A stretch of 28,335 bases of DNA. Source: an uncultured Phycisphaeraceae bacterium. Lineage in GTDB: Bacteria > Planctomycetota > Phycisphaerae > Phycisphaerales > UBA1924. The stretch covers positions 1 through 28,335 of the forward strand of contig CAZNEU010000189.1 of NCBI GenBank assembly GCA_964571915.1, in the 5' to 3' direction. The notes beneath the pieces were generated by a model. That model ran no database searches. It was not told the DNA's origin and saw only the letters and a list, made by a program, of their open reading frames with translations. Positions 7,885-9,192 of this stretch are shown here, one piece after another (the first letter of the stretch is position 1; every line of letters starts with the position of its first letter). Both the position numbers and the translations under genes were made by a program.

Positions 7885-9192
7885 ATGAAGATCCACGAAT
7901 ACCAGGCCCGCCAACTCCTCGCGTCGTACGGCATCCCGGTGCCCGCGGGCGAACTCGTGACCTCCATCGAAGAGGCCCAGCACGCCTTCCGGCGCGCCAC
8001 CGAGGGGCAGGCCGTGCCGCTGGCGGTGGTGAAGGCGCAGGTTCACGCGGGCGGGCGCGGCAAGGCGGGGTTCGTGAAACTCGTCGCCACCGCGCTCGAG
8101 GCCGAGAGCGCGTCACGTTTCATGCTCACCCACCGCATGAAGAGCCCGCAGACACCTCCCGAAGGCTTGGAGGTCAAGCGTGTGCTCATCGCGGCGGGTG
8201 TGGACATCGCGGAGAGGAAGGCATCGGGCACTGGACACTCGGCACTGGGGAAGACAGGTAACGGCGCGACTCCGGTTCGGCCACCAGTGCCCAGTGCCCA
8301 GTCCCCAGTGCCTTCCGCACGTGAAGAGTTCTACCTCGCCATCACCACCGATCGGCTGACGCGCCGCAACGTGCTGATCGCCAGCCGCGAGGGGGGTGTC
8401 GAGATCGAGCAGGTGGCTCACGATCGACCCGAGGCGATCATCAAGACCTTCATCGATCCGCTCGCAGGCCTCCACGCCTATCAGGCCCGCGACGCGGCAT
8501 TTGCCCTCGGCCTGACGGGCAAGCACGCCTCGCAGGCCGCCGACATCATGGTGAAACTCGCCCGCCTCTTCGTGGAGAAAGACTGCACGCTCGCCGAGAT
8601 CAACCCGCTGGTCATCACCGCCGGCCCCGGTGGCGCGCCGGGTCCGGTCATGGCGATTGATGCCAAGTTCAACTTTGATGACAACGCACTCTTCCGCCAC
8701 AAAGACCTGGAGGCCATGTTCGATCCGACAGAAGAAAACCCCGGCGAACTCAAGGCCCGCAAGTTCGGCCTCTCCTACATCGCCCTGGACGGCAACATCG
8801 GCTGCCTCGTGAACGGCGCGGGGCTGGCCATGAGTACCATGGACATCGTCAAACTCCACGGGGGCGAACCGGCCAACTTCCTTGATGTGGGCGGCTCCGC
8901 CAGCGAAGAGGCCGTGACCGAGGCCTTCCGCATCATCCTCGCCGAAGAGCGCTGCAAGGGCGTGCTTGTCAACATCTTCGGCGGCATCATGAAGTGCGAC
9001 ATCATCGCGCAGGGCATCGTGAACGCGGCCAAGACCGTCGGCTTCAAGGTGCCCCTGGTCGTGCGCCTCGAAGGCACCAACGTGGAGGCAGGGCGACAAC
9101 TGCTTGACGGCGCCCGCAAAGACATCCCCACCATGCAGGCCGCGACGGACCTGGCCGACGCGGCCCAGAAGGTTTGTGCCGCGGTAGGGTAA
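7885..9192 (+). CDS. sucC: Succinyl-CoA synthetase beta subunit carrying an in-frame ~37-aa insertion
   Basis: MKIHEYQA start, [77 protein letters not shown]. Confidence 0.98.
8216..8316. repeat. Palindromic heptamer element inside sucC
   Basis: Left arm GGAAG-GCATCGG-GCACTGG-ACACTCG-GCACTGG (8216-8248), 35-nt loop, right arm CCAGTGC-CCAGTGC-CCAGTCC-CCAGTGC-CTTCC (8284-8316). The arms are imperfect reverse complements. Confidence 0.9.

Follow-up and report, generated by a model that had tools for sequence, protein, structure and literature searches.

How does a gene for a core enzyme of the tricarboxylic acid (TCA) cycle come to carry a long palindrome in the middle of its reading frame? The question is raised by a 28,335-nt stretch of DNA from an uncultured Phycisphaeraceae bacterium (assembly GCA_964571915.1, contig CAZNEU010000189.1; the whole stretch is called the window here), in which sucC, the gene for the beta subunit of succinate-CoA ligase, contains an in-frame hairpin whose arms are built from tandem heptamers. 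We consider it likely that a hairpin element of a dispersed heptamer-repeat family came to lie in a permissive loop of SucC through insertion at the DNA level, and that the enzyme tolerates its translation product as a disordered passenger. The gene and the parts of the element are as follows.

7885–9192, + strand: sucC, ADP-forming succinate-CoA ligase beta subunit (Pfam, similarity to Escherichia coli succinyl-CoA synthetase (SCS), AlphaFold).
8216–8316, no strand: heptamer-armed hairpin element of 101 nt, in frame over residues ~111–144 (inverted repeat, fold, empty and filled sites).
8216–8248, + strand: left arm, cap GGAAG followed by GCATCGG GCACTGG ACACTCG GCACTGG; 76% identical to the left arm in the close relative L001, described below.
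8249–8283, no strand: central 35-nt loop, inverted relative to the orthologous element of L001 (loop identity comparison).
8284–8316, + strand: right arm, CCAGTGC CCAGTGC CCAGTCC CCAGTGC followed by cap CTTCC (Tandem Repeats Finder); 94% identical to L001.

The open reading frame (ORF) at 7804–9192 on the + strand encodes SucC, with a likely start at ATG 7885 (MKIHEYQ...) that gives a product of 435 residues. This product contains the Pfam domains PF08442, PF00549 and PF24948 (ATP-grasp_2 plus CoA-ligase). Its alignment with two E. coli SCS beta chains, 1JKJ_B and 1CQI_B (E = 1e-109), falls into two blocks, one on either side of the insert; the protein is a member of the ADP-forming succinate-CoA ligase beta subunits. 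Residues 1–110 correspond to E. coli residues 1–106 and residues 147–434 to E. coli 106–385, with 36 residues occupying the place of E. coli Lys106. At the DNA level, GCG (Ala, 8209–8211) is followed by 114 nt (8212–8325, 38 codons) and then by GAG TTC TAC CTC, encoding EFYL; the insert is free of stop codons and leaves the sucC frame intact. An initial sequence-only reading of the window had placed these 38 codons correctly between DIA and EFYL, and had rightly given E. coli SucC a single residue at this point. Its estimate of a gain of about 37 residues agrees with the 36 counted against E. coli and is too high for the organism's own clade, since the usual loop of Phycisphaerae homologues, DIADRKGGGKEEFYL (short and of the DRKGGGKEEF type), leaves a net gain of 30 codons (90 nt).

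The arms of the hairpin are 33 nt each, 85% complementary and separated by 35 nt. Tandem Repeats Finder reports a period of 7 at 8284–8312, with 4.1 copies and 90% matches, and the left arm consists of four degenerate heptamer units; the description of four heptamers per arm with GGAAG/CTTCC caps, made from the letters alone, is borne out by both the inverted-repeat and the tandem-repeat analysis. As RNA the hairpin folds at −66.7 kcal/mol, against −47.4 ± 3.8 kcal/mol for 200 shuffles (z = −5.1, none as good), and as DNA at z = −4.0. The heptamer GCCCAGT is free of stop codons in all six frames, which together with the net gain of 90 nt accounts for sucC staying open.

When did the element arrive? 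We compared the 120 best SucC homologues, which come from metagenome-assembled genomes (MAGs) of Phycisphaerae/Phycisphaerales. Two of them carry the comparison of filled and empty sites.

P0002 / L001, GCA_964590885.1: SucC 87% identical (BLASTP), 91% outside the insert; insert present, with length and junctions as in the window.
P0003 / L002, ERZ2854929: SucC ~85% identical; empty site, GAC CGC AAG GGT GGC GGC AAA GAG GAG.

Because the site is filled in L001 and empty in L002, the sucC insertion predates the split of the window species and L001 and postdates the divergence from the L002 lineage. The insert is therefore not specific to the strain, a point that the sequence-only reading had left to an alignment of relatives. 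Between the window and L001, sucC outside the insert is 91% identical in protein and 60% identical at four-fold sites, and the protein identity within the insert is 62%. The 35-nt loops (window 8249–8283, L001 ~8690–8724) are 69% identical when one is taken as its reverse complement and 23% identical in direct comparison; none of 100,000 shuffles of the loop attains 69%. On the strength of this match the loop has been inverted in one of the two lineages, presumably by recombination between the arms or by template switching. The inversion keeps both frame and length, and the L001 peptide becomes VAEPGTGRAPSS. Judged from these alignments, the sucC element seems to evolve as DNA and not as a selected peptide.

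Does the same element occur elsewhere? The 36-mer at 8281–8316, which covers the right arm, is found without a mismatch in L143, from another organism, where it serves as the right arm of a different hairpin, in frame in RlmN. With one to three mismatches, the 36-nt right arm recurs at nine further places in eight other loci. The 20-nt end CCCAGTSCCCAGTGCCTTCC occurs in 39 metagenome stretches, and this metagenome scan returned no additional sucC copy. A defined module with a fixed order of unit variants, common to unrelated loci, points to copying rather than independent slippage. Together with the empty and filled sites, the RlmN copy and the other copies of the arm uphold the earlier proposal of a small repeated palindromic element lying in frame in a core TCA gene.

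Within the window itself, the 14-mer CCAGTGCCCAGTGC occurs seven times with up to two mismatches, where 0.72 occurrences are expected, and three further heptamer features lie between genes.

18793–18876, no strand: intergenic hairpin of another family (AAAGTTC/GAACTTT) between fliS and a UDPGP-family gene; 29-nt arms, 90% complementary, 25-nt loop, period 7 in both arms by Tandem Repeats Finder.
18885–18924, + strand: intergenic one-sided array, (GCCTCGG/CCCTCGG)x3 + (CCCAGTG)x2 + CCTTCC; its end, CCCAGTGCCTTCC, is the end of the sucC right arm, and 18904–18924 is a further copy of the arm sequence.
25308–25342, + strand: intergenic array GAACTCT/GAACCTT, ~4–5 copies, between FtsX-permease and ABC-ATPase genes (Tandem Repeats Finder).

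When periods divisible by 3 are set aside, period 7 dominates in 108 kb of Phycisphaerae DNA, with 22 arrays of period 7, six of period 8 and one of period 5. A scan of GTDB species representatives with CCAGTGCCCAGTGCCCAGT, which stands for three or more GCCCAGT units, gave at least 120 loci. Among the matches listed, ~29 are from Phycisphaerae, far above the group's share of species, and ~17 are from Longimicrobium; the other hosts listed are Acidobacteriota, Sphaerobacteraceae, Oscillatoria/Nostoc, Bacteroidota and Streptomyces. One such locus, L089, belongs to the assembly of the close relative (GCA_964590885.1). An inverted partner within 250 nt accompanies ~15 of 123 arrays among the matches listed, which makes the one-sided array the commoner form, and copy number spans 3 to 76 units. 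Most arrays are intergenic, with 19 among those listed lying in coding-like ORFs. In-frame copies, with host proteins named from their translations (SucC alone was subjected to a domain scan), occur in methylmalonyl-CoA mutase-like, CysQ-like, radical-SAM-like, aldehyde dehydrogenase, ParC-like and DnaE2-like proteins, and PurL carries a full heptamer hairpin in frame. Heptamers are distributed inside and outside ORFs as a reading-frame filter would predict. Neither strand of GCCCAGT or GCAATGG contains a stop; GGAGTCA, with a stop in its reverse complement, is seen within ORFs solely as arrays of one orientation; and AAAGTTC hairpins are found only between genes.

Several loci show unusual accumulations of these repeats. 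In a Phycisphaeraceae MAG (L038:2700–6470), a single Mu-like transposase ORF holds three in-frame inserts, with two small hairpins of the same heptamer nearby. Four GCACTGG/CCAGTGC hairpins, all apparently intergenic, lie within 4.7 kb of a metagenome contig (L129:918–3659), and this family can reach high local density. Three copies of a ~236-nt unit, each ending in mixed GCCCAAT/GCCCAGT arrays, are present at L153:1238–1802, and a Bacteroidales locus (L105:3643–4175) contains 76 tandem units.

What does the insert add to the enzyme? Its translation is rich in Gly, Ser, Pro and Ala. In an AlphaFold model of SucC run with 64 homologues, the mean predicted local distance difference test score (pLDDT) is 87 outside the insert, and residues 115–142, between the strands at 100–104 and 148–155, are modelled below 50 and without secondary structure. 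The model fits a disordered surface loop; exposure at the surface and harmlessness are not proven by it.

Is the window's SucC an isolated case? Inserts of at least 5 residues are present at the same loop in 26 of the 120 homologues, and at a second SucC loop in 11 of the 120.

8620–8646, + strand: second insertion hot-spot loop, AGPGGAPGP, residues 246–254; unoccupied in the window and TKQGD in E. coli.

Five independent insert cases were read as DNA, and these consist of heptamer or octamer arrays or hairpins. Four of the loci are given here, with site 1 the loop occupied in the window and site 2 the second loop.

L123: site 1, GCAATGG/CCATTGC heptamer hairpin; site 2, octamer array x4.
L124: site 1, hairpin; site 2, (GGAGTCA)x9 + (GGACCCA)x4.
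L125: site 1, near-perfect hairpin (−74.7 kcal/mol) related to that of L124; site 2, none.
L126: site 1, one-sided (GCCCAGT)x3.7, the window's own heptamer; site 2, (CCCGACT)x5.

By their repeat units, unrelated heptamer elements have entered the same two turns of SucC independently. The second-loop insert of P0066, ESGVRSQGSGVRGQESGVRTQGPGP, derives from (GGAGTCA)x9.

Taken in order, the proposed course of events would begin with an ORF-less copy of a dispersed family, composed of tandem heptamers of the GCCCAGT type with GCCTTCC at the end, in its two-armed form, where two inverted arrays flank a short variable loop. In the ancestor that the window organism shares with the MAG GCA_964590885.1, this copy would have entered sucC as DNA at a Gly-rich turn between two ATP-grasp strands, replacing roughly GGY GGC GGC. 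Kept open by its stop-free units, the element would be translated as an unstructured surface loop of ~30 residues that the enzyme tolerates; its arms would have remained alike while the loop was flipped by recombination or template switching between them. The insertion and its age, the hairpin, the other copies, the flipped loop, the predicted disorder and the recurrence are shown by the sequences; that the insert is translated and close to neutral is what we infer. How copies spread is a guess that we make with low confidence, namely copy-in of a preformed array, trans-acting or repair-linked, rather than local slippage. The same two SucC loops would collect elements in many lineages, most simply because these are sites at which an essential enzyme survives insertion.

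A number of observations weigh against this account. The 94% identity of the right arm, against 60% at four-fold sites, is unexpected under pure neutrality and calls for either gene conversion by copies elsewhere in the genome or constraint acting on the nucleic acid itself. The orthologous inserts amount to two sequences, those of the window and L001, which are too few for stem covariation. Comparison of the filled and empty sites gives no convincing target-site duplication, and scanning 17 window ORFs against Pfam, which covers 28 kb of the genome, gave no transposase or other mobilising gene, no gene for a REP-associated tyrosine transposase (RAYT; REP, repetitive extragenic palindromic sequence) and no four-helix-bundle gene. 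Translation of the insert is deduced from the open frame. Both hot-spot turns are Gly-rich, are encoded by GGY-rich DNA and contain GGTGGCG, so that recurrence could reflect a sequence target instead of tolerance; the tolerance of an essential enzyme is the simpler reading.

The stability of the hairpin raises the possibility that the stem-loop acts as RNA, being kept for RNase III cutting or for tuning the stability or translation of sucC mRNA, with the peptide as a by-product. The arm identities of 76–94%, against 60% at synonymous sites, fit such a role, as does the z score of −5.1, and stems of similar architecture, also heptamer-armed, flank four-helix-bundle genes, one of them in a true 23S rRNA intervening sequence, a class whose stems are RNase III substrates (PMC4990558). 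We nevertheless regard an RNA role as unlikely. The loop sequence is free to invert, and some of the independent inserts at this site are one-sided arrays without a hairpin (for example L126, −9 kcal/mol). An Rfam scan of the whole window on both strands returned no family at threshold, and a scan of 7600–9400 for terminators and promoters found none at the insert, with terminator-like sites solely past the sucC stop. Cutting within the coding region would also destroy the message, and we know of no bacterial system that rejoins an mRNA cut in this way. Programmed bypass or an intein-like removal of the insert is rejected, since the frame runs through it without a stop codon and no bypass is needed. 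The removal or bypass at the RNA level that the sequence-only reading had offered as an alternative lacks support. A little less probable again than an RNA role is an origin by local replication slippage, as a long simple-sequence repeat, followed by fold-back duplication without any imported element. The prevalence of heptanucleotides among the long simple repeats of many bacteria and the range of 3 to 76 units speak for slippage; the ancestral loop AAG GGT GGC GGC AAA is, however, dissimilar to the heptamer, and the 36-nt arm, its unit order and the GCCTTCC end recur at unrelated loci in other organisms.

That the insert might instead be an adaptive loop of the protein, selected as a peptide next to the nucleotide site and serving, for instance, in regulation or docking, is suggested by its position in the ATP-grasp domain two residues ahead of the conserved EEFYL strand, by the enlargement of this loop in many lineages and by its persistence since the species split. 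Selection on the peptide seems improbable given a protein identity of 62% inside the insert against 91% outside, the outright replacement of the central peptide by inversion (VAEPGTGRAPSS in L001) and pLDDT values below 50; the inserts of other lineages are, moreover, unrelated peptides dictated by their own heptamers. Chimeric reads can create inverted repeats and the window is a metagenome-type contig, yet an assembly or amplification artefact is barely credible when an orthologous insert of the same length and diverged sequence stands in the independent assembly L001, the frame is intact and comparable inserts recur across dozens of other assemblies, each independent. Distant relatives do not conserve the insert as protein, other copies exist and two assemblies contain it, so the sequence-only reading survives the three objections that it had raised against itself. 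Insertion of a dispersed hairpin element into a permissive loop thus remains the account that we favor.

To which known class of repeats does the element belong? The closest functional analogues are the Rickettsia palindromic elements (RPEs), which are likewise dispersed palindromes of ~100 nt lying in frame at permissive sites of conserved genes. RPEs, in the work of Ogata et al. 2000, reportedly insert in frame in protein genes and add a peptide without destroying function. The sucC element, too, is a palindromic repeat in the range of ~100–150 nt, in frame in a conserved ORF; it differs in its host phylum, in arms that are tandem heptamers and not a unique consensus, and in belonging to a family that is more often one-sided and whose heptamer occurs across several phyla. 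We take the resemblance to be analogy and not membership.

By the structure of its arms the element belongs to the heptanucleotide repeats, a class with the short tandemly repeated repetitive (STRR) sequences of cyanobacteria and the long simple repeats of period 7, which are also tandem 7-nt units, dispersed, mostly intergenic and often in inverted pairs. As in heptanucleotide repeats generally, at least three units stand head to tail and the unit is dispersed at many loci, including those of related genomes. STRR1 is said to have been described by Mazel in 1990 with the unit CCCCAGT. The main sucC unit, GCCCAGT, is one base off this sequence, CCCCAGT itself appears once among the four units of the right arm, and (GCCCAGT)n arrays occur in Oscillatoria and Nostoc. 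Tandem repeats of Borg elements share with the sucC insert the translation of nucleotide repeats in ORFs into low-complexity, disordered segments, and Schoelmerich et al. 2023 reportedly found that they create disordered protein regions. Borg repeats, in contrast to the sucC element, are divisible by three and arise in place, whereas the sucC unit is 7 nt long, is read in three frames in turn and belongs to a module shared between loci. PMC4679880 relays from Mrazek 2007 that, among long simple repeats, the heptanucleotide class is the most frequent in many bacterial genomes, and that it is attributed to slippage. The TAACTGA repeats of Beggiatoaceae lie mainly upstream of start codons and, where they occur in ORFs, at protein ends.

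REP sequences and the hairpins formed by REP pairs (REPINs) resemble the element in having two inverted short repeats and a short spacer in a dispersed, mostly extragenic hairpin of ~100 nt (PMC3116915, PMC3733652). The GTAG/CGTC tetranucleotide that marks REPs (PMC3733652) is absent from 8216–8316; the sucC arms, unlike those of REPINs, are internally periodic, and the 28-kb window has no RAYT gene. Viewed as a miniature inverted-repeat transposable element, the insert has inverted ends, GGAAGGCA and TGCCTTCC, and its sole candidate duplication, GCA on both sides, is too short to count. The sucC element is outside every named family that was testable. The literature yielded no description of heptamer repeats in Phycisphaerae or of repeated in-frame capture by the loops of one core enzyme. 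What is new here is a palindromic repeat of Phycisphaerae that lies in frame and has arms made of heptamer arrays, recurrent at two loops of one enzyme and with its loop inverted between species.

A further resemblance concerns a family of small genes. At L124:6168–6775, a TIGR02436/PF05635 four-helix-bundle gene sits between rpsD and its neighbour and is exactly bracketed by inverted heptamer arrays; this family was first found in 23S rRNA intervening sequences. A homologue in a Thermomicrobiales MAG (L102:3119–3685) is bracketed by inverted GCCCAGT/GCCGAGT arrays, and this locus had been fetched only for its GCCCAGT array, not for the four-helix-bundle gene. We assembled 19 such genes, namely those of L124 and L102, 12 from plasmids and five from MAGs or metagenomes (L166–L182); the plasmid set covers Anabaena, Nostoc, Calothrix, Gemmatirosa, Leptolyngbya, Picosynechococcus, Pseudanabaena, Stanieria, Geminocystis and Oscillatoria, together with the Azospirillum 23S rRNA helix-45 intervening sequence. 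Arrays of 7–8-mers are present in at least one flank of 18 of the 19, and inverted arrays stand on both sides of 15 of the 19, against 2 of 75 ordinary genes in the same test, where one of the two positives is the L124 four-helix-bundle gene itself. The other control positive is an ATP-synt_ab family gene of L001 with CGCCCTC arrays (L001:5459–5497 and ~6950–7050). Represented among the cases are Cyanobacteria, Gemmatimonadota, Chloroflexota and Planctomycetota, as well as the Azospirillum 23S rRNA intervening sequence. An iterated hidden Markov model search of 1.27 Mb of fetched loci gave only two four-helix-bundle genes, those of L124 and L102, and most arrays are therefore without such a gene nearby. 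Gene-sized loops between inverted GCCCAGT arrays at L048, L104 and L077 were considered as cassettes and rejected, as no four-helix-bundle gene lies inside; at L104 and L077 the arrays occupy successive intergenic regions around ordinary genes, and the 396-nt loop of L048 is without a clear gene.

The 23S rRNA intervening sequences share with the sucC element a stem of terminal inverted repeats, and the Coxiella intervening sequence has three tandem GACAGAT units in its 5′ stem region at the RNase III site (PMC4990558). The arms of the Azospirillum 23S intervening sequence and of 14 four-helix-bundle genes outside rRNA are tandem 7–8-mers, and the sucC element likewise has a stem of inverted 7–8-mer arrays. 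It differs from intervening sequences in lacking an ORF, in lying in a protein gene where RNase III excision is not expected to be tolerated, and in its short loop; at 35 nt the loop holds no PF05635/TIGR02436 ORF, and the window has none either. Papers on four-helix-bundle genes in cas operons or rRNA insertions make no mention of arrays, and none was found that describes them. Four-helix-bundle cassettes lie between cas6 and cas4, or between cas10 and cmr3, on cyanobacterial plasmids (L166, L172, L173). Earlier work took four-helix-bundle genes beside cas genes as CRISPR-associated; the arrays that flank the cas-embedded genes suggest cassette insertion instead of a CRISPR function. Most close homologues of the four-helix-bundle protein are on contigs shorter than 3 kb, as expected if flanking repeats break short-read assemblies.

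These comparisons suggest that heptamer-armed stems are a general chassis, some carrying a four-helix-bundle gene and many, such as the sucC copy, carrying nothing. We put forward tentatively, as a possibility that we would not rank as probable, that the sucC hairpin is a miniature, gene-less member of a group of heptamer-armed stem-loop cassettes found across phyla; rRNA intervening sequences, STRR repeats, operon-embedded four-helix-bundle genes and in-frame inserts would then be one mobile system, its spread aided by the four-helix-bundle protein or by an RNase III-cut stem. The hypothesis draws its link between sucC and the cassettes from shared architecture and from one shared heptamer, that of L102. 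If true, it would jointly explain intervening sequences, the abundance of heptamers in some bacteria and the very abundant four-helix-bundle genes, and each of these three puzzles would be testable by simple binding, cleavage and mobilisation assays.

The observations on SucC show short nucleic-acid repeats repeatedly rewriting surface loops of essential, slowly evolving enzymes in a little-studied phylum. Heptamer inserts are a source of new disordered segments and call for caution in marker-protein alignments, phylogenies and structure prediction. The repeated hits on two loops of SucC provide a natural map of insertion tolerance, and the loop inversion a clean record of what would be arm-to-arm recombination within a coding region.

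Two features next to sucC were observed in passing. The CN_hydrolase gene at 9174–10151, 3′ of sucC, has an in-frame TAA at 9870–9872 where the L002 orthologue has Tyr (GLSEYLWKLEQP), and could be a pseudogene, a sequencing error or a case of read-through. It is adjoined by a DUF4160/DUF2442 pair of small overlapping ORFs at 10210–10861 of the window.

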